Sequence record: MN850601.1
Reading direction: 5' to 3' (one strand)
Origin: Escherichia phage inny
DNA length: 64,000 bases
Position 1 is the first letter of the stretch; the number at the start of each line of letters is the position of its first letter. The notes beneath the pieces were generated by a model. That model saw only the letters and a list, made by a program, of their open reading frames with translations, was not told where the DNA came from and made no database searches. Both the position numbers and the translations under genes were made by a program. Positions 2,873-62,614 of this stretch are shown piece by piece.

Positions 2873-3193
2873 TTAATCCTTAAGACGTTCATTTAAATCT
2901 GCAATAACATCATTTAAATCTTCACATTCCAGTGTTAACTCTGAAACTTGTTCATTCAAACAAGAAACTTCTTCATTTAGATCTGAAATAATGTTTTCTA
3001 ATGAATCTACTTGATCATCATATGAACGTTTTGTTTCTTCAAGGTCTTCCATAAGACTATCAATCAAATGCAGCAAAGATAAGATATAGCCGTCTCCTGT
3101 TTCGTTCCTCCACTCACTTCCGTAGCGATAAATAATAATTTCACCATCATCGACTACTGTAAAATACTTACCTTTACCAGAATAAATTTCCAT
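2873..3193 (-). CDS. hypothetical protein with acidic coiled-coil C-terminus (106 aa)
   Basis: ORF track; heptad-like acidic repeats (DSLENIISDLNEEVSCLNEQVSELTLECEDLNDVIADLNERL). Confidence 0.45.
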   Translation of the reverse strand: MEIYSGKGKYFTVVDDGEIIIYRYGSEWRNETGDGYILSLLHLIDSLMEDLEETKRSYDDQVDSLENIISDLNEEVSCLNEQVSELTLECEDLNDVIADLNERLKD

Positions 3194-3202
3194 AAACTCT
3201 CC

Positions 3203-3607
3203 TTATTGTAGCTTAAGTGAACTGCGAAGACGTTCCTCTTGCTGATCACGAATATGTTGTGGAACCTCATGAATTGAATCGTTACCGTGCCTATTCTCCA
3301 CAACTAAAGAAATAACTTGATAACCAAACTCTTCAGCAAGAGTTAAATAAGGTTTAAGTTCTTTTTCTGTAGTAGAGGTATTAGAAACAATAATCTTTTC
3401 AACACCATACTGCATATATTTTTGTACTTTGACACGACACCATTGGTGTGCTTTATGGATATTCTCTTGTTTCCACTCATACACACCATCTTCAGTGTAG
3501 TGGTATTGATCTGCCTCACAAATAGGCCAATGATTTTCAGAGATAATTTCTGCTACTGTAGATTTACCTGCACCTGAAACACCACGTAAAATGATAAGTT
3601 GTTTCAT
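3203..3607 (-). CDS. P-loop kinase (putative polynucleotide 5'-kinase)
   Basis: 134 aa; Walker A GVSGAGKST at N-terminus; stop/start directly adjacent to the ligase-like gene upstream. Confidence 0.55.
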   Translation of the reverse strand: MKQLIILRGVSGAGKSTVAEIISENHWPICEADQYHYTEDGVYEWKQENIHKAHQWCRVKVQKYMQYGVEKIIVSNTSTTEKELKPYLTLAEEFGYQVISLVVENRHGNDSIHEVPQHIRDQQEERLRSSLKLQ

Positions 3608-7209: not shown

Positions 7210-7578
7210 CTAATTAACGTCAGCACTATGATTGTTGAGAGTATAGGATACTCCATCGCCCAAGTCAACATGAATCTCAACTCCTAACTGTCTTTCTAAT
7301 GGTAAACGTTTTGAGAATTGATAATTACAAAGTTTGCAATCTAAGTCAAGCAACTCATGTTTGCTTAAACCTGGGATGATAACTTTGCTTCCCACTGTCC
7401 ACTCAATACCTTCAAAGTTATCTCTTCTTTTCAAAATGTCAAGTAAGAAGATGATTTGTTGCCATTCCGTAGACAAGTCTTCTTCATAGAACGCAGAACA
7501 AAAAGTTTTATCATCGTAGAAAGCATACATTATGCCTCCATCTACTGTTTCACTTCTAACGTAACGTGTGACCCTCAT
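7210..7578 (-). CDS. hypothetical protein (122 aa), first gene of the minus-strand block
   Basis: ORF track; AGGAGGG SD upstream of ATG at 7578. Confidence 0.5.
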   Translation of the reverse strand: MRVTRYVRSETVDGGIMYAFYDDKTFCSAFYEEDLSTEWQQIIFLLDILKRRDNFEGIEWTVGSKVIIPGLSKHELLDLDCKLCNYQFSKRLPLERQLGVEIHVDLGDGVSYTLNNHSADVN

Positions 7579-7931
7579 TATTCCCTCCTGTATAGCTCTG
7601 TAACGAGCTAATGGCCTTTAAGATATGCAATCACCTTACCTCACAGTAAAACTCGTTACAATCGTTTTTAGGAGGTTTAGGTTGTACTTAAAAATAATCT
7701 AAAAAGGTGTTGACAAACGCAAAAAAGTATGCTACCCTAACCCCCGAAAAACGCCGAGCGCAGCGAGGGGGTGTTATCTAATCTTGTGATACATGATCTA
7801 ACAGACAACTGAGTAGTCTACATATAGCACTATGTTATGTCTATAATACTAACATACATACTCTATACTAACAATAGATTCTTTATTAATTTTATTATTA
7901 ATTAAATAATAAATTAAATAATAAATATCTA

Positions 7932-7960
7932 TTGACTTTAGATCTATCTGTATGTAGAGT
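7932..7960 (+). promoter_or_regulatory. sigma70-like promoter TTGACT-N17-TGn-TAGAGT
   Basis: -35 at 7932..7937, TG at 7953..7954, -10 at 7955..7960; 40 nt upstream of the prs-like gene. Confidence 0.55.
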
Positions 7961-7999
7961 AGAGAACATAAAGTCCTAACTCAACTAAGGAGATAAACA

Positions 8000-8893
8000 A
8001 TGAAAGTTAGTATTCTACATGGTGTTGACTGTTATGTTACTGATGTAGACGTTAAAGTCTTTACATTCTCTGGTGGAGAACAACATGTTCAACTAGACAC
8101 GAATCTATCAGGTTTCAATCATGCTACAGACAGAATCTTACTCTCTTTAGAAGTAAGATCTGCTAAAGACTTGATGACTTTGGTTATGACTAAGAATGCA
8201 TTGGACAATATGCTATATCATAAACCATATTGTGTTGATTTACTCATGTTGTATGTGCCGTATGCACGACAAGACAGAGTGTGTGAGCCTGGGGAAGCAT
8301 TCGGAGTTAAAGCCTTTGCTTCTATAATTAATTCATTAAATTTCTCACGTGTTATCGTTGCTGATCCACATAGTGATGTTACTCCGGCAGTGTTTGACAG
8401 ACTCTGTGTAATACCTCAAGAAGAGATTGCTTACGAAACTTTAAAGTGGAAGTTACGTATGGAGAATTTTGCTCTTGTTAGTCCTGATGGTGGTGCTCTT
8501 AAGAAAATATTTAAATTATCTAAGAAAATGTCTTTAGATGTGTTCTGTGCAGAGAAGGTTAGAGATACTGCAACAGGTGCTATTGTTCGTACAGACATTT
8601 CTGTACAGGATTTCAATAAGCGTAACCTGATGATCGTAGATGATATCTGTGACGGCGGTAGAACTTTTATTGAATTGGCTAAAGTGCTACGTGCTCGTAA
8701 CGCAGGTAAGATTGAGTTATATGTTACACACGGTATCTTTTCTAAAGGTCTTAAAGAGTTAAGTGAGCACTTTGACTGCATTCATTCTCTTAATGTGTGG
8801 GAAGATAACATCCAAGAAGATTCCGGTGTTCTTGTTAAGAATCAGTCAGATTTGCAACAACAAATTGTATCTCCATACGTGTGGAATTTTTAA
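8000..8893 (+). CDS. prs: ribose-phosphate pyrophosphokinase family protein (Prs-like; possibly an ADP-ribose pyrophosphokinase)
   Basis: 297 aa; Prs hallmark YVPYARQDR and PRPP-binding loop NLMIVDDICDGGRTF; AAGGAG SD. Confidence 0.85.
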   Translation: MKVSILHGVDCYVTDVDVKVFTFSGGEQHVQLDTNLSGFNHATDRILLSLEVRSAKDLMTLVMTKNALDNMLYHKPYCVDLLMLYVPYARQDRVCEPGEAFGVKAFASIINSLNFSRVIVADPHSDVTPAVFDRLCVIPQEEIAYETLKWKLRMENFALVSPDGGALKKIFKLSKKMSLDVFCAEKVRDTATGAIVRTDISVQDFNKRNLMIVDDICDGGRTFIELAKVLRARNAGKIELYVTHGIFSKGLKELSEHFDCIHSLNVWEDNIQEDSGVLVKNQSDLQQQIVSPYVWNF

Positions 8894-8903
8894 ATAATAA
8901 GTG

Positions 8904-8932
8904 TTGACAATAGGGAGTATGCTTAGTAAGAT
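8904..8932 (+). promoter_or_regulatory. sigma70-like promoter TTGACA-N17-TAAGAT embedded in an 8-bp inverted repeat
   Basis: -35 at 8904..8909, -10 at 8927..8932; GGGAGTAT (8912..8919) and ATACTCCC (8930..8937) form a perfect palindrome across the -10. Confidence 0.55.
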
Positions 8933-8964
8933 ACTCCCACACTAACAAACAAGGAGACATAACT

Positions 8965-10698
8965 ATGAATATTTTTGCACCTTTTGCTACTGATTGGTAT
9001 AAACCTGGTCACAAGCAGATGTACAACCAAAATACAAAACTCATTTTCTCTAATTTAACTCCTCGTAATGATAAAAACTTTGCACACTATGCAGATCGTG
9101 AAGCACGTGGTGTAATTGTTTTAGGTATTCGTCGAGCAGTTACTGATGCTCTTGTAACTATGTGGGATAGCTTCTTTAAAATGTCTCGTAGTGCAGCAGT
9201 AAATAAATTTTATCGTATGTCTAAAAATGCATTAGGTGCTTCTGCTCCTTCTGCTGAATGTTGGGGAGAATTGCACGATTTAGGTTATCTTCCGCTGGAA
9301 GTTCGATCTCTGCCAGAAGGTGTTTTGTGTCCTATTGGTGTTCCTGTGTTTACTGTGCATAATACTTTAGAAAAATTCTTTTGGTTAACTAACTATGTGG
9401 AAACACTATTGTCAGATGAAACTTGGAAGACAATGACTAATGCTACAGCAGCTTTTCAGTATAAGCGTATTGCTATGGCATATGCGATGGCAACGTGTGA
9501 TAATATTGATCATGTTAACTTCCAGTGTCATGATTTTAGCCTACGTGGTTTAAGTAATATCGAAGATGGTTATAAGAGTGGTATCGCTCATTTGGCATCT
9601 TTCACAGGAACAGATAACATTCTGGCTATTGAGACTGTGCATGATTATTATGGTATTGATTATGATCAGTTTGTTGCAGGTTCTATTCCGGCAACAGAAC
9701 ATTCAGTAGCAACGACTAACATTGGAGCTATTGTTGAAGATCTGAAGAAACATTTCCCACATCTTAAAGATGATGTTGATGGGCTTCGTTATGTAGCAGA
9801 GAAAGAGTTTCTTCGCCGCTATATTGAAGAAATTGTTCCAGAAGGTTTTTGTTCATATGTAGCAGATTCTTATGACTACTGGGCTGTCTTGACTCGCATT
9901 CTGGTCGAGTTGAAAGATTCCATTATGTCACGAAATGGTCGTCTTGTTATTCGTCCAGATTCAGGAGATCCGGTTAAAGTTGTTGCAGGATACAATGTTG
10001 AATCTTTTGATAACTATGAAGACCTTTTAAATAATGGTATTGCTACAGCCACTGAAGTAGTTCATTTGGCTGATGTTAATAAGTATTACAATGTTCTTCA
10101 GGATTGCAGTGTTGCTGATTGTATTGATGAAACTTATGAGATTCCTTATTGTGAAGCAGTAGGTTCTATTCAAATCCTTTGGGAAGTGTTTGGTGGTACT
10201 ATCAACCGAAAAGGCTACAAGGTTCTTGATCAGCACATCGGTATGATTTATGGTGATTCTATTACTGTTGAACGAGAACACGAAATCTTACGCCGACTGA
10301 AGAAGAAAGGTTTTGCAGCTTCCAATATTGTATTTGGTGTTGGTAGTTATACTTATCAGTTCAATACACGAGATACTTTTGGTTTTGCTGTTAAAGCAAC
10401 AGGTAGTATCATCGGTGAACACGAAATTTTGGTAAGTAAGGAGCCTAAAACTGATCCTGGTAAACGTTCTGCAAAAGGTTTTATTAAGGTTGTTAAGGAT
10501 ACAAACGGTAAACTTTCTCTCGTGGATAATCTTTCTTTTAAAGATATTCAAGATGAAGACAATGAGTTAAAAGTTATCTTCAGGGATGGTACGGTTATTA
10601 CACCACAAGTAGAAGGACGTGATGAAACATTTACGGATATCCGCAATCGTGTTGATGTAGAGGTTCTTCGTACTATGGGAACCATCCAGGTTGACTAA
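8965..10698 (+). CDS. nadV: nicotinamide phosphoribosyltransferase family protein (NAMPT/NadV-like)
   Basis: 577 aa; N-terminal ATDWYKPGHKQMY matches the NAMPT ATDSYK...H.KQY signature; adjacent to the Prs-like gene. Confidence 0.85.
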   Translation: MNIFAPFATDWYKPGHKQMYNQNTKLIFSNLTPRNDKNFAHYADREARGVIVLGIRRAVTDALVTMWDSFFKMSRSAAVNKFYRMSKNALGASAPSAECWGELHDLGYLPLEVRSLPEGVLCPIGVPVFTVHNTLEKFFWLTNYVETLLSDETWKTMTNATAAFQYKRIAMAYAMATCDNIDHVNFQCHDFSLRGLSNIEDGYKSGIAHLASFTGTDNILAIETVHDYYGIDYDQFVAGSIPATEHSVATTNIGAIVEDLKKHFPHLKDDVDGLRYVAEKEFLRRYIEEIVPEGFCSYVADSYDYWAVLTRILVELKDSIMSRNGRLVIRPDSGDPVKVVAGYNVESFDNYEDLLNNGIATATEVVHLADVNKYYNVLQDCSVADCIDETYEIPYCEAVGSIQILWEVFGGTINRKGYKVLDQHIGMIYGDSITVEREHEILRRLKKKGFAASNIVFGVGSYTYQFNTRDTFGFAVKATGSIIGEHEILVSKEPKTDPGKRSAKGFIKVVKDTNGKLSLVDNLSFKDIQDEDNELKVIFRDGTVITPQVEGRDETFTDIRNRVDVEVLRTMGTIQVD

Positions 10699-10719
10699 AT
10701 AAAAACTTCGTGATAAGAT
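10691..10719 (+). promoter_or_regulatory. sigma70-like promoter TTGACT-N17-TAAGAT overlapping the nadV stop
   Basis: -35 at 10691..10696, extended TG, -10 at 10714..10719. Confidence 0.5.
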
Positions 10720-10769
10720 TAAGGTAAGGAGAGCCTGCAACTGCCCTGGATGGGCTTCACGAAGGATTT

Positions 10770-10991
10770 ATGAAACAACATAATTTTTATTTTCGTTGCC
10801 GAGCCTGTAACAGACACTTGACTAATCATTCCCGTAGAGACAGGAATGGTAATATTCAAGAGTCGGATCTATGCTCGATTTGTACAAGTTTGGCATTCGA
10901 CGACAGTCCCGAAAGGGTTTATCAACATCAAAGTGTAACTGATCTTCTTCTAAATTACACAGCACCAGAGGAGGAATTAGATTTCACATAA
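10770..10991 (+). CDS. hypothetical zinc-ribbon protein (73 aa)
   Basis: ORF track; CRAC...CSIC cysteine pairs. Confidence 0.5.
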   Translation: MKQHNFYFRCRACNRHLTNHSRRDRNGNIQESDLCSICTSLAFDDSPERVYQHQSVTDLLLNYTAPEEELDFT

Positions 10992-11004
10992 TTAAGGAAA
11001 CAGT

Positions 11005-11115
11005 ATGTCTACAGAAATTATTTTTGGCTTATCTGTTTTTATTGCTATTGTATCTTTTGTATGCGGTTATACACTAGGTTACAGATCAAGAAAAAATATT
11101 GTAAAAACTAGTTGA
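11005..11115 (+). CDS. small hydrophobic protein (36 aa)
   Basis: unlisted short ORF; AAGGAAA SD 7 nt upstream of ATG; single hydrophobic helix IIFGLSVFIAIVSFVCGYTLGY. Confidence 0.3.
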   Translation: MSTEIIFGLSVFIAIVSFVCGYTLGYRSRKNIVKTS

Positions 11116-11141
11116 CAACATAGCTAGTTATTTGCTAAGAT
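11112..11141 (+). promoter_or_regulatory. sigma70-like promoter TTGACA-N18-TAAGAT
   Basis: -35 at 11112..11117, -10 at 11136..11141. Confidence 0.5.
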
Positions 11142-11171
11142 AAGCACAAGTTAAACAAAAAGGAGAAAACT

Positions 11172-11438
11172 ATGACAGAAAAGACTTATGGTAAAGAATT
11201 GATTGAGAAGCACGTATTGATTGATAATAAAGGTGGAGCAATCTTTATTTTTGAACCTGAATCAGTTCTTACTGAAAACGAAAATGGTAGCGTTAGCCTT
11301 AAAACAGAAAGTTTGGTAATTGACTTCCTTGCTCTTCTGGATGAAATGGGGCTTCCTCACGAAGAAGAAGCAGCTATTGCTTTGATTGCAGTTCTTCTGG
11401 AGAAACGCGAAGCTGGTGAAATGACCCAGTATGCTTAA
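11172..11438 (+). CDS. hypothetical protein (88 aa)
   Basis: ORF track; AAAGGAG SD. Confidence 0.55.
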   Translation: MTEKTYGKELIEKHVLIDNKGGAIFIFEPESVLTENENGSVSLKTESLVIDFLALLDEMGLPHEEEAAIALIAVLLEKREAGEMTQYA

Positions 11439-11445
11439 TATTCAA

Positions 11446-11521
11446 GGTTCCATAGCTCACTGACGAGAGCGCACACCTCATAAGTGTCGAGGGCAGGGAT
11501 TGTAACCCTGGGGAACCACCA
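11446..11521 (+). tRNA. tRNA-Met/Ile2-type (anticodon CAT), non-canonical T-loop
   Basis: hand-folded cloverleaf: acceptor GGTTCC/GGAACC, D-stem GCTC/GAGC, anticodon loop CTCATAA, encoded CCA; T-loop ATTGTAA (A54, T58) instead of TTCGAAT. Confidence 0.6.
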
Positions 11522-11552
11522 TTTAAAAGGAGGTGCTATGCATCTCCTATAT

Positions 11553-11638
11553 GCAAGTGTGGTGGAATTGGTGATACACATTGTGCTTAAAACGCAACGC
11601 TTAAATGATTGAGGGTTCGAATCCCTCCACTTGCACCA
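11553..11638 (+). tRNA. tRNA-Leu (anticodon TAA), type II
   Basis: acceptor GCAAGTG/CACTTGC, 3-bp D-stem, anticodon loop CTTAAAA, long variable arm, T-arm GAGGG-TTCGAAT-CCCTC, A73, CCA. Confidence 0.85.
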
Positions 11639-11640
11639 AC

Positions 11641-11746
11641 GCCTAGTAGGGTATTTGGTAATTCCGAGGCCATCAAAGCCTGAAAAATATGTTAGACCGT
11701 TTTGTCTAACTAAATACGAAATATGGTTCGATTCCATAACTAGGCT
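11641..11746 (+). tRNA. atypical 106-nt tRNA-like element (candidate anticodon TCA)
   Basis: perfect 7-bp acceptor GCCTAGT/ACTAGGC, D-like arm with GG loop, 4-bp stem with loop CATCAAA, extra 7-bp hairpin GTTAGAC-CGTTTT-GTCTAAC, canonical T-arm TATGG-TTCGATT-CCATA; no CCA encoded; too long for a standard tRNA. Confidence 0.3.
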
Positions 11747-11781
11747 CCCGATTTAAATAGTAATTTTTTAATAAAAATATC

Positions 11782-11810
11782 TTGACATTTACTTAGTTTT
11801 TTGTTATAGT
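11782..11810 (+). promoter_or_regulatory. sigma70-like promoter TTGACA-N17-TATAGT with extended TG
   Basis: -35 at 11782..11787, TG at 11802..11803, -10 at 11805..11810; 12 nt upstream of the tRNA at 11822. Confidence 0.6.
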
Positions 11811-11821
11811 CATTATGAAAA

Positions 11822-11903
11822 CGGGGTGTATCTCACCTGACTTCTAATCAGGCGTTAACCGAGTAATTGGAGTATGCAGGTTCGAATCCTGTCACCCCGG
11901 CCA
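11822..11903 (+). tRNA. tRNA-Arg-like (anticodon TCT) lacking a canonical D-arm
   Basis: acceptor CGGGGTG/CACCCCG, only 7 nt (TATCTCA) before a perfect anticodon arm CCTGA-CTTCTAA-TCAGG, 23-nt variable region with CCGA-GTAA-TTGG hairpin, T-arm GCAGG-TTCGAAT-CCTGT, G73, CCA. Confidence 0.45.
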
Positions 11904-11921
11904 AAAAGTTTTAAAAACTAC

Positions 11922-11951
11922 TTGACAAGCAAGATAGTTTTATGTTAGATT
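11922..11951 (+). promoter_or_regulatory. sigma70-like promoter TTGACA-N17/18-TTAGAT
   Basis: -35 at 11922..11927, TG then -10 around 11945..11951. Confidence 0.55.
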
Positions 11952-11966
11952 TAAAGTATGGTAACA

Positions 11967-12056
11967 GGAAGGTAGGGCGCAGCGGTGCGCAACCAGGTTT
12001 GAACCCTGGCCCATTGTAGCGATACGGTGATGGTTCGACTCCATTATCTTCCTCCA
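11967..12056 (+). tRNA. tRNA-Ser (anticodon TGA), type II
   Basis: acceptor GGAAGGT/ATCTTCC, anticodon arm CCAGG-TTTGAAC-CCTGG, 19-nt variable arm, T-arm GATGG-TTCGACT-CCATT, CCA. Confidence 0.85.
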
Positions 12057-12075
12057 AATTCGCTTAGGAGCTTTA

Positions 12076-12227
12076 TGAATTATAAAACTATTGGACAGAT
12101 TGTTACCGGAGTTAAGATTGTAAATAATAAAGTTGTTTATGAGTATTCTAATCTTCAACAATCTGAAGATGGTAAGAATATTCGTATGGTAAAAGCAGAA
12201 CAAAAAGATTCCGGTTGTTTTGAATAA
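12076..12227 (+). CDS. small hypothetical protein (50 aa)
   Basis: ORF track 12027..12227 starts inside tRNA-Ser; trimmed to ATG at 12076 behind TAGGAG SD. Confidence 0.3.
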
Positions 12228-12235
12228 TTAAGAAC

Positions 12236-12321
12236 GGTAGATTGGTGAAATGGTAGCCACAACAGTTTGCTAAACTGTCGTCGGAAACGGCGTGTAGGTT
12301 CAAGTCCTACATCTACCGCCA
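12236..12321 (+). tRNA. tRNA-Ser (anticodon GCT), type II
   Basis: acceptor GGTAGAT/ATCTACC, 3-bp D-stem GTG/CAC, anticodon arm ACAGT-TTGCTAA-ACTGT, long variable arm, T-arm GTAGG-TTCAAGT-CCTAC, G73, CCA. Confidence 0.85.
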
Positions 12322-12377
12322 AGTTATCTTTAATGTAGCTTGTTGCTCTTAGTTGCTTGGTGTAACTTTTTGGAAGG

Positions 12378-12439
12378 ATGGCTGCAACCATCTTACTTTA
12401 ATAGAGTAAACTTTCGGCAGATGGCCCCCACCATCTTAC
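12378..12439 (+). repeat. two near-identical hairpins (GGATGG-loop-CCATCTTAC), spaced about 45 nt
   Basis: 12378..12397 AAGGATGG-CTGCAA-CCATCTT and 12422..12439 AGATGG-CCCCCA-CCATCT; both followed by TTAC; stems resemble the T-stem of the upstream tRNA-Ser. Confidence 0.5.
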
Positions 12440-12491
12440 CGATACCTCATAGTTAGTGGTGCGAACACTGGCTATTTTAAAGATAATTTAT

Positions 12492-12567
12492 ACATCGTTA
12501 GCTTAGTTGGTAGAGCAAGGGGCTTTTAACTCCAAGGTCGAAGGTTCGAATCCTTCACGATGTACCA
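12492..12567 (+). tRNA. tRNA-Lys (anticodon TTT)
   Basis: perfect acceptor ACATCGT/ACGATGT, D-arm GCTT-AGTTGGTA-GAGC, anticodon loop CTTTTAA, T-arm GAAGG-TTCGAAT-CCTTC, A73, CCA. Confidence 0.8.
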
Positions 12568-12572
12568 AACAC

Positions 12573-12659
12573 GTAGGTATCGCATAGCGGCAATTGCTGG
12601 AGACTGTAAATCTCCTGCCCTTCGGGGCTTCGTTGGTTCGAGTCCAACTACCTGCACCA
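12573..12659 (+). tRNA. tRNA-Tyr (anticodon GTA), type II
   Basis: acceptor GTAGGTA/TACCTGC, anticodon arm GGAGA-CTGTAAA-TCTCC, variable hairpin GCCC-TTCG-GGGC, T-arm GTTGG-TTCGAGT-CCAAC, A73, CCA. Confidence 0.85.
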
Positions 12660-12666
12660 AATTAAA

Positions 12667-12751
12667 GATGGATTGGCCTAGTGGTTGGGCGACGGACTGT
12701 TAATCCGTGAACGAAAGTTCTAGCAAGGTTCAAATCCTTGATCCATCGCCA
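12667..12751 (+). tRNA. type II (Ser-like architecture) tRNA with anticodon GTT (Asn-type)
   Basis: acceptor GATGGAT/ATCCATC, 3-bp D-stem GCC/GGC, perfect anticodon arm ACGGA-CTGTTAA-TCCGT, 15-nt variable arm with GAAC-GAAA-GTTC hairpin, T-arm CAAGG-TTCAAAT-CCTTG, G73, CCA. Confidence 0.7.
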
Positions 12752-12830
12752 AATAGTGCTTGTAGAGTTAATAGAAACCTCTAGAATTTTCTAGAATTGT
12801 AGGTATCAAATCCTACCAAGCAAATATTTT

Positions 12831-12905
12831 GCTCCTATCGTATAACGGCTATTACGGTTGCCTTGTAAGCAACTTATCAGGGTTCGAGTCCTTGTGGGAG
12901 CACCA
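12831..12905 (+). tRNA. tRNA-Thr (anticodon TGT)
   Basis: acceptor GCTCCTA/TGGGAGC (one G-U), anticodon arm GTTGC-CTTGTAA-GCAAC, T-arm CAGGG-TTCGAGT-CCTTG, A73, CCA. Confidence 0.8.
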
Positions 12906-12927
12906 ATTTAACTCTAAAGGAGTGTAT

Positions 12928-13251
12928 GTGACAGAAAAAGAGTTAGAGAAATATTTTAATATCAATGTTTTCGATGGTTTTGATGATATTGAAGATGTTG
13001 AAAGATATTATGAAGTAGAGTTAGATAAGGATAACATTGTAATTCTTTCTGCCACTTATGATTGTGCATATTATGAAGGCGAATCTCACGTTTATTTCTA
13101 TGATATGAAAACATCTTTGTTTTATGAAGTACACGCATATCATTGTTCTTGTTATGGCTTAGAAGGTCAGTGGGAACCTGAAGAAATAGGTGATTTGAGC
13201 TTTACGGTTGCATATCTAAACAGACGTGGTGCATCTACTATTTTAAAATAA
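12928..13251 (+). CDS. hypothetical protein (107 aa)
   Basis: ORF track 12829..13251 begins inside tRNA-Thr; trimmed to GTG at 12928 behind AAGGAG SD. Confidence 0.5.
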   Translation: MTEKELEKYFNINVFDGFDDIEDVERYYEVELDKDNIVILSATYDCAYYEGESHVYFYDMKTSLFYEVHAYHCSCYGLEGQWEPEEIGDLSFTVAYLNRRGASTILK

Positions 13252-13265
13252 ATATTAAAAGCCTC

Positions 13266-13295
13266 TTGACAAAGGGGCTAATAATATGTTAGAGT
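13266..13295 (+). promoter_or_regulatory. sigma70-like promoter TTGACA-N18-TGT-TAGAGT
   Basis: -35 at 13266..13271, TG at 13287..13288, -10 at 13290..13295; upstream of tRNA-Gly. Confidence 0.55.
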
Positions 13296-13306
13296 AATAT
13301 TGTTAA

Positions 13307-13381
13307 GCGGGTATAGTGTTAATGGTAGCATATGAGGTTTCCACCCTCCAGGTGCAGGTTCAAGTCCTGTTACTCGCTCCA
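13307..13381 (+). tRNA. tRNA-Gly (anticodon TCC)
   Basis: acceptor GCGGGTA/TACTCGC, anticodon loop TTTCCAC, T-arm GCAGG-TTCAAGT-CCTGT, U73, CCA. Confidence 0.8.
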
Positions 13382-13480
13382 AGATTATTTAAATGGAATC
13401 GCTAGAGAAAATTTCTCTTTTCGCTCATGGTTTTCTCCTTCAAACTCTAGCGGTTCTTTTTAAGTGATTTTTAGTTTTAT

Positions 13481-13555
13481 TGGAGATTAGCCTAGTGGGA
13501 AGGCAACGGCCTTTGAAGTCGTGATGACTAGGTTCGATTCCTAGATCTCCAGCCA
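13481..13555 (+). tRNA. tRNA-Gln (anticodon TTG)
   Basis: acceptor TGGAGAT/ATCTCCA with U1-A72, D-arm GCC-TAGTGGGAA-GGC, anticodon arm ACGGC-CTTTGAA-GTCGT, T-arm CTAGG-TTCGATT-CCTAG, G73, CCA. Confidence 0.8.
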
Positions 13556-13562
13556 ATATTTA

Positions 13563-13638
13563 CAGTGCGTAGCGCAGTTGGTAGCGTGGGAGCCTTGGAC
13601 GCTTCAGGTCGCAGGTTCGAGTCCTGCCGCACTGACCA
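13563..13638 (+). tRNA. tRNA-Pro (anticodon TGG)
   Basis: acceptor CAGTGCG/CGCACTG, D-arm GCGC-AGTTGGTA-GCGT, anticodon arm GGAGC-CTTGGAC-GCTTC, T-arm GCAGG-TTCGAGT-CCTGC, A73, CCA. Confidence 0.85.
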
Positions 13639-13643
13639 AATTT

Positions 13644-13718
13644 GCAGAGATAGCTGAGACGGATTAGTGCTACCCTGAAAAGGTAGAAAGGATGGATCGT
13701 TACCATCTCTCTGCACCA
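13644..13718 (+). tRNA. tRNA-Phe (anticodon GAA), non-canonical T-loop
   Basis: perfect acceptor GCAGAGA/TCTCTGC, perfect anticodon arm CTACC-CTGAAAA-GGTAG, T-arm GATGG-ATCGTTA-CCATC (A54 and T58 swapped relative to consensus), A73, CCA. Confidence 0.7.
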
Positions 13719-13795
13719 GATAACACCATCCAAGGAGAATACTTGGTTAACTGTCAATAGCACATTGAGGCTTCTTACAGTGGTGTACTTATTAT

Positions 13796-13880
13796 GGCTA
13801 AGTGGTGGAATGGTATACACGATACGCTTAGAACGTATTGCCCCAAGGGATTGTGAGTTCGAGTCTCACCTTAGCTACCA
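13796..13880 (+). tRNA. tRNA-Leu (anticodon TAG), type II
   Basis: acceptor GGCTAAG/CTTAGCT, 3-bp D-stem GTG/CAC, anticodon arm ATACG-CTTAGAA-CGTAT, variable hairpin, T-arm GTGAG-TTCGAGT-CTCAC, A73, CCA. Confidence 0.85.
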
Positions 13881-13895
13881 AATTATTACAGGTTT

Positions 13896-13974
13896 CGCGG
13901 GATAGAGGAGTCTGGTCGTCCTCGCCAGTTTCATATGCTGGAGATCGTAGGTTCAAATCCTACTCCCGTTACCA
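13896..13974 (+). tRNA. tRNA-Met/Ile2-type (anticodon CAT), second copy, unpaired 1-72
   Basis: acceptor CGCGGGA/TCCCGTT with C1 opposite U72, D-arm GAGG-(11 nt)-CCTC, anticodon arm CCAGT-TTCATAT-GCTGG, T-arm GTAGG-TTCAAAT-CCTAC, A73, CCA. Confidence 0.65.
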
Positions 13975-14032
13975 ATAAATACCTCCCTTCTGGTGTAATG
14001 ATTAAATTACATTGACACTTCAAGGAACTCAT

Positions 14033-14115
14033 AGCCGGGTAGATTTAAAAGAGTATGGTACTCAATATGGCTCCAAACCATAGATCAGGGGGTTCGATTC
14101 CTCACCTTGCTGCCA
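14033..14115 (+). tRNA. tRNA-Trp-like (anticodon CCA) with expanded D region
   Basis: anticodon arm TATGG-CTCCAAA-CCATA, T-loop TTCGATT, G73, CCA; best acceptor AGCCGGG/CCTTGCT has one C-U mismatch and leaves about 9 extra nt before the D-stem GAGT/ACTC. Confidence 0.4.
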
Positions 14116-14120
14116 ATTAT

Positions 14121-14196
14121 TGTGGTATCGTACAGATGGTTAGTACACTCGACCGATAATCGAGAAACAACGGTTCGACTCCGTTTACCACGACCA
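14121..14196 (+). tRNA. tRNA-Ile (anticodon GAT)
   Basis: acceptor TGTGGTA/TACCACG, D-arm GTAC-AGATGGTTA-GTAC, anticodon arm CTCGA-CCGATAA-TCGAG (C33), T-arm AACGG-TTCGACT-CCGTT, A73, CCA. Confidence 0.75.
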
Positions 14197-14310
14197 AACT
14201 CCGTGCCAGCGGTGTCTTCGAAGAACAAGCCTAGTTCCTTCTGAGATGGAGGGGTGCGACTCCTTAACGCACAACATACTACTACTACTAAATACTTATC
14301 AGGAGATATC

Positions 14311-14580
14311 ATGTATACTTTAAAAGTAATTCGCAAGTTTCCTCAAGAAGAGGAAGTAAGAATTTATAACACTGTACCATTCGTAGTAAATGAAGAAGAA
14401 TTCTTTTATTGCTTAGAAGATGAAGTAATTATTCAATATCATTGGGAAGGTTACGACAGACAAGATGGTGTTGTAGCTTCTGTGCTTGCTGGTGACAGAG
14501 TGTTATTCATTCACAAAACTGAATCAGCATATTTAATGAATGATAAAGGACAAACTGTTAAAGTAATTAACAGACCATAA
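14311..14580 (+). CDS. hypothetical protein (89 aa)
   Basis: ORF track 14254..14580 trimmed to ATG at 14311 behind AGGAG SD. Confidence 0.5.
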   Translation: MYTLKVIRKFPQEEEVRIYNTVPFVVNEEEFFYCLEDEVIIQYHWEGYDRQDGVVASVLAGDRVLFIHKTESAYLMNDKGQTVKVINRP

Positions 14581-14593
14581 AGAATTTTATAAA

Positions 14594-61993: not shown

Positions 61994-62557
61994 TTAAATA
62001 ATTTTATTCATGTCTTGACAATGTAAAAGGTGTGAAACAGCTTTTCTAGGATCATCATTACCTAAACGGTAGGTGTGAAATAAATATAACCCACGTAATA
62101 AACCTAGCCTTTTGTTGTTAGCATGTAATGCTTTAGAGAAAATTATATCAAACTGTATTGACCTTTCCTCAAAAGGGATTTCATTCCACAGACTCTTACG
62201 AAAGAGAAGAAAGAATCCTGCTAAGATAGCATCTGTAGGTACTTCCTCTATTGAGTTTCCCCATTCTAGATGTGCTCTTTTTGCAATCTCAATGTGGTGT
62301 AATATATTCGGATCTTCACTTCTTTCATTATTAAATAATTGATATGTTGATCCCAATCTGTTACAAGATGCACCAAGAACATCAAAATCAGGATTTGAAC
62401 GGACAATTGATTCCAGCCAAGCAGGTTGTTCTGGAAGAAGAAACATTGTATCAATGTCTCTTAGGCAAATCCAACTATCTTCTGGTAAGACACTTATTGT
62501 GTCATTGATACCTTTTCCAATATCTCCAGAAAGATAGGGAGTTATGTGAAATATCAT
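61994..62557 (-). CDS. hypothetical protein, possible fourth sugar-transfer enzyme
   Basis: 187 aa; CLRDIDTMF DxD-like motif; co-oriented with the three glycosyltransferase genes. Confidence 0.35.
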   Translation of the reverse strand: MIFHITPYLSGDIGKGINDTISVLPEDSWICLRDIDTMFLLPEQPAWLESIVRSNPDFDVLGASCNRLGSTYQLFNNERSEDPNILHHIEIAKRAHLEWGNSIEEVPTDAILAGFFLLFRKSLWNEIPFEERSIQFDIIFSKALHANNKRLGLLRGLYLFHTYRLGNDDPRKAVSHLLHCQDMNKII

Positions 62558-62614
62558 ACTCCCTCCGTATTATTACTTTAGCATTTTTAGACTAAAAAGT
62601 CCAAATGGTTTTAC

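Follow-up and report, generated by a model that had tools for sequence, protein, structure and literature searches.

Promoter-early stem-loop (PeSL) cassettes are known from the T4-type phages (Arbiol et al. 2010, PMC2839356; Comeau et al. 2014, PMC4122927). Within such a cassette a stop codon in an AT-rich tract is followed by -35 and -10 boxes, by a stem-loop that lies mostly between the boxes or over the -10 and in which G-T pairs are tolerated, and then by a Shine-Dalgarno (SD) sequence and an ATG, with recombination break-points falling at the cassette (PMC2839356). The stem-loop has been proposed to terminate or attenuate transcription that comes in from upstream, and terminator activity has been shown experimentally for one of them (PMC2839356, PMC4122927). 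The present analysis concerns an inverted repeat in Escherichia phage inny (sequence record MN850601.1), of which a stretch of 64,000 nucleotides, here called the window, was examined. The window derives from a phi92-like E. coli myovirus (Justusliebigvirus, Stephanstirmvirinae), and the repeat sits in the 71-nt intergenic gap between a Prs-like (Adps-type) gene and a NAMPT-like (Namat-type) gene, where it overlaps the core of a predicted promoter for the latter. The two genes correspond to the NARP1 "two-gene operon" (Adps + Namat), by which phages restore NAD+ and escape NAD+-depleting defences (bioRxiv 10.1101/2024.02.11.579819).

What, then, might a dyad over a promoter core be for? In the T4 genes e, soc and 49 the promoter lies inside a hairpin, such that the hairpin exists only in read-through transcripts, where it sequesters the SD or the AUG and blocks translation of the long transcript. 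Dyad-symmetric operators of the lac, lambda and LexA type offer another model, and the first-pass annotation of this DNA had indeed taken the repeat for a repressor operator, through which the NAMPT-like gene would be regulated separately from the Prs-like gene. Judged by comparative evidence the dyad is a real and functional feature, and we put at slightly above even the chance that it would be the DNA image of a conserved cis-acting RNA hairpin, held in a compact promoter-hairpin-leader cassette, and not a protein operator. The order of such a cassette before the Namat gene would be an upstream stop codon in an AT-rich tract, a sigma70 promoter, the hairpin, an A-rich leader and the ribosome-binding site, with selection retaining the pairing rather than the sequence. 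In phi92-like phages the promoter is nested in the hairpin, having its -35 just 5' of it, its -10 across the loop and the 3' arm, and its predicted start directly past the stem. RNA initiated at this nested promoter would carry no hairpin and an open A-rich leader, and read-through RNA from the Prs-like (Adps) gene, or from any other upstream gene, would contain the hairpin. On the read-through RNA the hairpin would most likely act in cis as an attenuator, as a protective barrier at an RNA end, or as a structural insulator between transcription units or of the leader from variable upstream sequence, in line with the role put forward for the PeSL stem-loops.

The resemblance to a PeSL is one of layout, for the same elements are gathered in less than 100 nt, here as a 71-nt gap with TAA at 8891-8893, TTGACA, 17 nt, TAAGAT, AGGAG and the ATG at 8965. 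A stable stem-loop lies within the promoter core here too, and the cassette goes with the downstream gene and marks a break-point at which upstream genes differ. However, PeSLs form a repeated family of similar sequences in the hyperplastic regions of T4-like phages, whereas the hairpin described here belongs to one gene, has no U-tract and lies in a phage that is phi92-like and not T4-like. With T4 e, soc and 49 the locus shares the nested promoter, in that RNA from upstream would have the full hairpin and RNA from the internal promoter would be without the 5' arm; the difference is that the SD here is unpaired, 13 nt away from the stem. A closer likeness to T4 e/soc is found elsewhere in this phage, at 10691-10772, where the NAMPT-like gene ends within a promoter (TTGACT, 17 nt, TAAGAT). 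In this case the spacer sequence CTTCGTG (~10708-10714) can pair with CACGAAG just 5' of the ATG at 10770, enclosing the -10 and the SD AAGGAG, so that the ribosome-binding site would be sequestered in read-through RNA only. Both arms are kept in Klebsiella phages and the sequence that they enclose differs.

The favoured reading draws support from relatives in which the pairing is kept and the sequence has changed. About 28 records are identical across the junction, and the rare variants among E. coli phages fall in the loop, in the outermost pair (AMO3598) or in the innermost pair (metagenome contig L031). The informative relatives are the Klebsiella phages KP13-26, phi1_175008 and FKP3 together with the metagenome and IMG/VR contigs L021, L025, L026, L029, L032, L033 and L035; the useful variants came from DNA-pattern scans of IMG/VR and metagenomes, a protein-based search of IMG/VR for the locus having given mostly near-identical relatives. 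The promoter of the Klebsiella-type relatives reads TTGACT, 17 nt, TAATCT, with GGAGAGGA/TCTTCTCC as its dyad. Across an alignment of 14 sequences 88% of cells are paired, against 46-70% when the partners are slid, and the arm changes amount to two pairs altered on both sides, one A-U turned into G-U, one pair gained and one lost. The folding free energies (dG) of the three allele types are -11.4, -13.3 and -13.1 kcal/mol, and contig L032 forms nine pairs, two of them G.T. The Klebsiella-type relatives also have a different gene upstream (a small open reading frame (ORF), an HNH endonuclease or unrelated genes), and homology resumes at the stop codon, the AT-rich tract and the -35. At least five upstream contexts are found (prs, small ORF, HNH, and those of metagenome contigs L032, L033 and L035), with homology beginning at AATAA-NTGTTGAC, and we infer that recombination may have taken place at the cassette boundary. 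Taken alone, the covariation among close relatives is no more than suggestive.

The main result is that the same theme recurs at greater distance. A hairpin based on GG(G)...(C)CC, accompanied by a sigma70-like promoter, precedes the NAMPT-like gene in eight lineages, namely Justusliebigvirus, the Klebsiella Stephanstirmvirinae, Mydovirus, Seunavirus, two of Henunavirus, ChuuTotoro and Certrevirus (Table 1). The stems are of 5-8 bp, with dG of -8.6 to -12.5 kcal/mol and every position paired, and stem positions 3-6 vary among G-C, A-T, C-G, T-A and G-T from one lineage to another. The 3' end of the stem is usually 13 or 14 nt from the SD (range 9-18). An A-rich leader with the motif AACAAAC or ATCAAAAC is conserved after the stem, and in IMG/VR contig L005 a different 9-bp stem fills the spacer. 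Relative to the promoter the hairpins adopt two registers. In the nested register (window, KP13-26, VIK251, 4MG) the -10 is within the hairpin and the stem ends 5-6 nt past it, the loop being exactly the -10 hexamer in VIK251 and 4MG; the predicted +1 falls 0-1 nt beyond the stem, so that the promoter's own RNA would be without the hairpin. In the downstream register (pEp_SNUABM_01, Hena1, ChuuTotoro, CR8) the stem starts 9-12 nt past the -10, a geometry in which the hairpin would form the 5' end of the mRNA. The +1, predicted in every case, is thus past the stem in the window and three lineages, and 2-5 nt before it in four. In VIK251 and 4MG the arms thus occupy those positions of the promoter that are free of sequence demands, as would be expected of a hairpin and a promoter packed into a gap of 53-71 nt. 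In phages whose NAMPT-like gene overlaps the preceding gene, is translationally coupled to it or directly adjoins it, as in Agtrevirus P46FS4, the Felix-O1-like phages Mushroom and Arno162, and Klebsiella 05F01, promoter and hairpin are both absent; the two co-occur.

The downstream register invites a different explanation, in which the hairpin is a 5'-end stabiliser of the NAMPT-gene mRNA, meant for the extreme 5' end of the transcript and brought there in phi92-like phages through processing of read-through RNA or through a weak start 5' of the stem. Protective 5' stem-loops of the ompA type lie close to the transcript 5' end, and this would agree with the predicted 5'-terminal placement in pEp_SNUABM_01, Hena1, ChuuTotoro and CR8, where the stem begins at about +2 to +5, as well as with the near-constant distance of ~14 nt to the SD, which fits a leader element. 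In the four nested cases, however, the main transcript from the best promoter would be without the stem, yet the pairing is still kept, and the sole alternative upstream -10 (AATAAT, 8893-8898) has a poor -35. A stabiliser is for these reasons considered unlikely.

The nested register suggests a further possibility, that the feature operates in the DNA of the promoter, with the arms serving as a spacer and a C-rich discriminator that tune open-complex stability, or as a cruciform, and with their complementarity being secondary. The right arms of the four nested lineages do provide C- or GC-rich discriminators (ACTCCC, TCTCCC, CGCCCT, CACCCC) with a C two bases past the -10, and at the rRNA promoters of E. 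coli the open complexes formed with discriminators of this kind are short-lived. Such a role nevertheless leaves unexplained why bases of the spacer covary with the discriminator and why the same hairpin occurs 3' of the start in four lineages with AT-rich discriminators; moreover, an 8-bp arm with a 10-nt loop makes a poor cruciform. Very little probability is assigned to it.

How far could the repeat be a functionless coincidence? The window holds 46 distinct perfect inverted repeats of at least 8 bp with loops of 3-20 nt, against 21.4 +/- 3.6 in dinucleotide shuffles, and in 7.7% of the shuffles at least one of ten strong-promoter -10 boxes lies inside such a repeat; two of the ten, as observed (8904 and 19781), do so in 0.3%. 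As RNA the 26-nt hairpin has a dG of -11.4 kcal/mol and a z of -4.1, the 71-nt promoter region has a z of -2.9, a value that 3.3% of random windows of the genome reach, and the promoter core folds better than hexamer-preserving shuffles (p = 0.004). By itself the dyad is thus only marginally beyond chance, and it is conservation in relatives that establishes it, on comparative grounds, as a real feature. A neutral relic or chance repeat that happens to overlap a promoter would agree with the abundance of such repeats, with the frequency of the shuffles and genomic windows just given, and with the natural single-base variants that break terminal pairs (AMO3598, L031). It does not account for compensatory changes within and between lineages, for the reappearance of the hairpin in eight lineages with its distance to the SD almost unchanged, or for the contrast with control promoters. 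The core minimum free energy (MFE) of six independent NAMPT promoters ranges from -3.4 to -14.4 kcal/mol, five of the six being at or below -8.7, compared with a mean of -3.7 for 35 other promoters of the related phage vB-Eco-KMB37 (Mann-Whitney p = 5e-4), only four of which are individually significant at p <= 0.05; the same comparison over a longer region and eight lineages gives p = 0.0035. Chance is therefore regarded as improbable, somewhat more so than a stabiliser. A general PeSL-like family across the promoters of the phage was also considered and rejected, 26 early-region promoters having a mean z of -0.08. As promoters are not enriched for hairpins, the element would be specific to its gene and not a repeated family like the PeSLs.

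The operator reading fares least well. The perfect 8-bp palindrome on which it was built is present, albeit one base further along than first reported (8913..8920/8931..8938 and not 8912..8919/8930..8937), and it does overlap the promoter core as an operator would; the arms do not strictly bracket the -10, since the left arm falls within the spacer and the right arm takes in the last two bases of the hexamer. A dimeric protein binding the repeat over the -10, and thereby silencing the NAMPT-like gene independently of the Prs-like gene, would also suit the outer GGAG/CTCC, which is invariant among the Stephanstirmvirinae relatives with its halves about two helical turns apart, and a symmetric change of the arms could in principle track an altered repressor specificity. 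With the lac, lambda and LexA type the dyad shares its position as an inverted repeat over the core promoter, but it differs from them in that pairing is kept and not sequence, that length and register vary, and that neither a second site nor a candidate regulator was found. The half-sites are not conserved, GGGAGTAT/ATACTCCC having become GGAGAGGA/TCTTCTCC in the Klebsiella-type relatives, and the inner arm sequences of VIK251, 4MG, pEp_SNUABM_01, Hena1, ChuuTotoro and CR8 are unrelated, with the pairing alone retained. Nor is the spacing fixed: the dyad spans 15-26 bp, its loop varies from 3 to 10 nt, and its position is over the -10 in some lineages and 9-12 nt past it in others. This combination of variable length, unrelated inner sequence and two registers is unlike the site of one DNA-binding dimer and would fit a selected hairpin. 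G.T pairs, which count as mismatches in double-stranded DNA, are seen in one orientation only, the one that yields G.U in the sense RNA. No DNA-binding domain was found by Pfam in four neighbouring small ORFs, a search that covered near neighbours only.

Further copies of the dyad were sought in the ~149-kb genome, assembled for this purpose from the window and from KMB37 1-39200 and 100000-148640, and with up to two mismatches per arm there is none but a single look-alike at 62537-62563 on the minus strand. This site was rejected as a second operator because it belongs to the start of a glycosyltransferase gene, whose SD (GGAGGGAG), ATG and Thr-Pro codons ACTCCC make it up. The site stays GGGAG-ATG...ACTCCC in Klebsiella phage KP13-26, Citrobacter phage Tr1 and Phapecoctavirus ECO340P1, and the glycosyltransferase N-terminus MI[FY][HY]ITPY is conserved there. 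In KP13-26 the promoter dyad has changed and the look-alike has not, which argues that the two sites have no binding protein in common. Repression through the dyad is consequently held to be the least probable of the explanations considered. What survives of the proposal is the idea of separate expression. The NAMPT-like gene has its own sigma70-type promoter between the two genes, and this promoter is conserved with it even when the upstream gene is a small ORF, an HNH endonuclease or something unrelated, so that independent initiation of transcription is plausible. As an observation of its own, the glycosyltransferase site could fold into a hairpin, GGGAGU-AUGAUAUUUCACAUA-ACUCCC, that would sequester the SD and start codon of that gene.

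Several points weigh against the RNA-hairpin reading. The covariation within the Stephanstirmvirinae rests essentially on one phylogenetic split, and the hairpins of the distant lineages were picked out visually and by MFE, which leaves some selection bias. The sense strand folds more stably than the antisense (-13.3 vs -8.6 kcal/mol in KP13-26, -13.1 vs -9.0 in L032) on account of the G.T pairs, but as proof of a role in RNA this asymmetry had to be downgraded, given that the sense strand is likewise favoured in 22 of 34 control promoters. Among the promoters of the phage as a whole 6 of 36 have z < -2, compared with 10% of random windows at z <= -2. In four lineages the hairpin is within the gene's own mRNA, and a single mechanism shared by both registers is an assumption. 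No U-tract follows the stem, ACACUAAC standing in its place, and a terminator scan does not report the hairpin, which makes efficient intrinsic termination unlikely. A literature search for transcription start site, transcriptome or transcript-end data in Vequintavirinae or Stephanstirmvirinae found none; we infer the start site, the read-through RNA and the effect at RNA level. With intrinsic terminators the element has in common a stable G/C-based hairpin in an intergenic gap directly past a stop codon, and hairpins placed 9-18 nt before the SD, mostly canonical terminators, are found at about 20 genes of this phage; the difference lies in the missing U-tract, and among the lineages only ChuuTotoro has UUUU.

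A more specific proposal is that the promoter within the hairpin forms a switch governed by transcript origin and sets the Namat:Adps ratio in NARP1 NAD+-reconstitution counter-defence, with hairpin-bearing read-through RNA being attenuated, processed or bound by a factor and RNA from the nested promoter being freely translated. We rate this as unlikely, a shade below the stabiliser; if true, the amount of the second enzyme would be set by infection stage, RNA polymerase traffic or a hairpin-binding protein. On the broader RNA-hairpin reading, the Adps/Namat pair of phi92- and rV5-like phages would not be a simple operon, as the second gene would have its own strong promoter, joined to a hairpin kept through compensatory evolution in at least eight lineages. 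This would provide a testable handle on the expression balance of two NAD+ enzymes and would extend the PeSL idea of a joint promoter and stem-loop beyond the T4-type phages. The effect on phage biology is probably quantitative more than fundamental. The case also cautions against taking every dyad over a -10 as an operator. The composite promoter/stem-loop cassette is previously undescribed in this phage group and lies inside the NARP1 counter-defence pair. At this junction the curated phi92 record annotates ribosome-binding sites only, with neither promoter nor operator. In BASEL phage Bas60 PaulScherrer, a carrier of the Adps/Namat pair, the junction is 99.3% identical.

Table 1. Features of the Prs-like/NAMPT-like junction in the window and hairpins preceding the NAMPT-like gene in the window and other phages
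Feature	Position in window	Strand	Sequence or layout	Remarks
Predicted sigma70-like promoter upstream of Prs-like/Adps gene	7932..7960	+	TTGACT, 17 nt, TAGAGT	Consensus scan, prediction
Prs-like (Adps-type) gene	8000..8893	+		ORF; Pfam PF00156/PF14572; annotated in relatives as ribose-phosphate pyrophosphokinase
Stop codon of Prs-like gene	8891-8893	+	TAA	Within AT-rich tract directly 5' of -35
-35 hexamer of NAMPT-gene promoter	8904..8909	+	TTGACA	Consensus scan; TTGACA/TTGACT in relatives, except muut (TTGATA)
Left (5') arm	8913..8920	+	GGGAGTAT	In promoter spacer; covaries with right arm in Klebsiella-type relatives
Loop	8921..8930	+	GCTTAGTAAG, 10 nt	Includes first four bases of -10 hexamer
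-10 hexamer	8927..8932	+	TAAGAT	17-nt spacer from -35; TAATCT in Klebsiella-type relatives
Right (3') arm	8931..8938	+	ATACTCCC	Overlaps last two -10 bases (AT, 8931-8932); fills discriminator to position -1
Predicted transcription start A8939 and A-rich unstructured leader	8939..8951	+	ACACTAACAAACA	Start from promoter geometry, 7 nt past -10
Shine-Dalgarno sequence	8952..8956	+	AGGAG	13 nt past stem; ribosome-binding site annotated in phi92
NAMPT-like (Namat-type) gene	8965..10698	+		ORF, ATG 8965; Pfam PF04095; relatives' annotations
Window hairpin			GGGAGTAT-10-ATACTCCC	Stem end 13 nt from SD
KP13-26 hairpin			GGAGAGGA-8-TCTTCTCC	Stem end 18 nt from SD
VIK251 (Mydovirus) hairpin			GGGCG-[TACAAT]-CGCCC	Stem end 14 nt from SD
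4MG (Seunavirus) hairpin			GGGGTG-[TAGAAT]-CACCCC	Stem end 14 nt from SD
pEp_SNUABM_01 hairpin			GGGGAGA-CAT-TCTCCCC	Stem end 14 nt from SD
Hena1 hairpin			GGGGAC-GACTT-GTCCCC	Stem end 14 nt from SD
ChuuTotoro hairpin			GGGGAGG-CAT-CCTCCCC	Stem end 17 nt from SD
CR8 hairpin			GGGGCA-CAT-TGCCCC	Stem end 9 nt from SD

The promoter of the NAMPT-like gene is near-consensus and of sigma70 type, and the AT-rich tract upstream of it contains the Prs stop codon. Beyond the -10 the right arm comprises the six bases up to the predicted +1 (A8939), and the leader at 8939..8951 shows no significant fold (z +0.8). An outer helix AGUGU/ACACU that RNAfold places around the stem was rejected, as it is not kept in Klebsiella-type relatives, and a mini-ORF from the ATG at 8919 was likewise dismissed, its SD spacing being only 1 nt and its position not conserved. 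Rfam gives no family match within 8900-8960, the only matches of the scan being in the tRNA cluster. The -35 and AT-rich upstream tract of the promoter at 7932 are partly kept in Klebsiella phages, and this promoter is the predicted source of read-through RNA over the Prs/NAMPT junction. It lies in a non-coding stretch of ~420 nt (7578-7999) that separates a divergent minus-strand block of DNA-metabolism genes from the Prs-like gene; also in this stretch are a TTGACA whose -10 is poor and, at ~7740-7770, an inverted repeat rich in G/C. A 62-aa ORF annotated in KMB37 at 7624-7812 has four stop codons in the frame of the window.

Over 7900-10800 the window is 100% identical to vB-Eco-KMB37 and 98-99% identical to about 55 further records, including phi92. 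Closely matching records also include four labelled as Campylobacter phages (MG065639, MG065645, MG065656 and MG065689, i.e. A150, A145, C3 and A110a; ~146 kb; stated host Campylobacter jejuni), which are 100% identical over the 151-nt junction, with A145 at ~98% over 2.9 kb; the host may have been mislabelled, or the phages may be contaminants. The phi92 record places a 151-nt 'hypothetical tRNA' inside the coding sequence of the NAMPT-like gene (3158-3308 of that record, L001; ~9557-9707 of the window). An Rfam scan of window positions 7400-20200 gives no tRNA at that site, so the annotation is likely to be spurious. A weak tRNA-Sec-like match at 11967-12052 is under the Rfam threshold, and from ~12.4 kb on the tRNA coordinates of the window and KMB37 are shifted by 36 nt (12492 vs 12456), which indicates an indel in the tRNA cluster.

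Other promoters of the phage are also associated with hairpins. A second hairpin-nested promoter (TTGACA, 17 nt, TAGACT) is found at 19781-19831 and lies within the 3' end of the portal gene. Its stem is of ~18 bp with the core CAAATATCC (19793-19801) / GGGATATTTG and the -10 near the tip, and it has a z of -4.6 and folds at -19.2 kcal/mol in sense vs -8.1 in antisense; the element is nearly identical in Klebsiella phages, in which a G-to-A change converts a G.U pair to A-U. Within the 3' end of the terminase gene the hairpin TCTACCCC-TTCAAT-GGGGTAGA (18128-18149) lies 12 nt past the -10 of a TTGACA/TAAAGT promoter and becomes TCTGCCCT...AGGGCAGA in Klebsiella phages, equivalent to two compensatory pairs. 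Outside the window, the small-ORF region of KMB37 at ~136-145 kb (L037 36030-45114) has at least 12 sigma70-like early promoters with a conserved leader CACATAGGGCGGGAAATGG ~4 nt past the -10 (variants CATAGAGCGGGG and CGTAGGGCGGCAATAG), forming a repeated promoter-plus-leader cassette. Finally, short stems straddle the -35 of the promoters at 11106-11135 (AACTAG/CTAGTT), 11914-11946 (AAAACTA/TAGTTTT) and 13260-13281 (AGCCTC/GGGGCT), the last of which has a z of -2.5 and stands in front of a tRNA gene.

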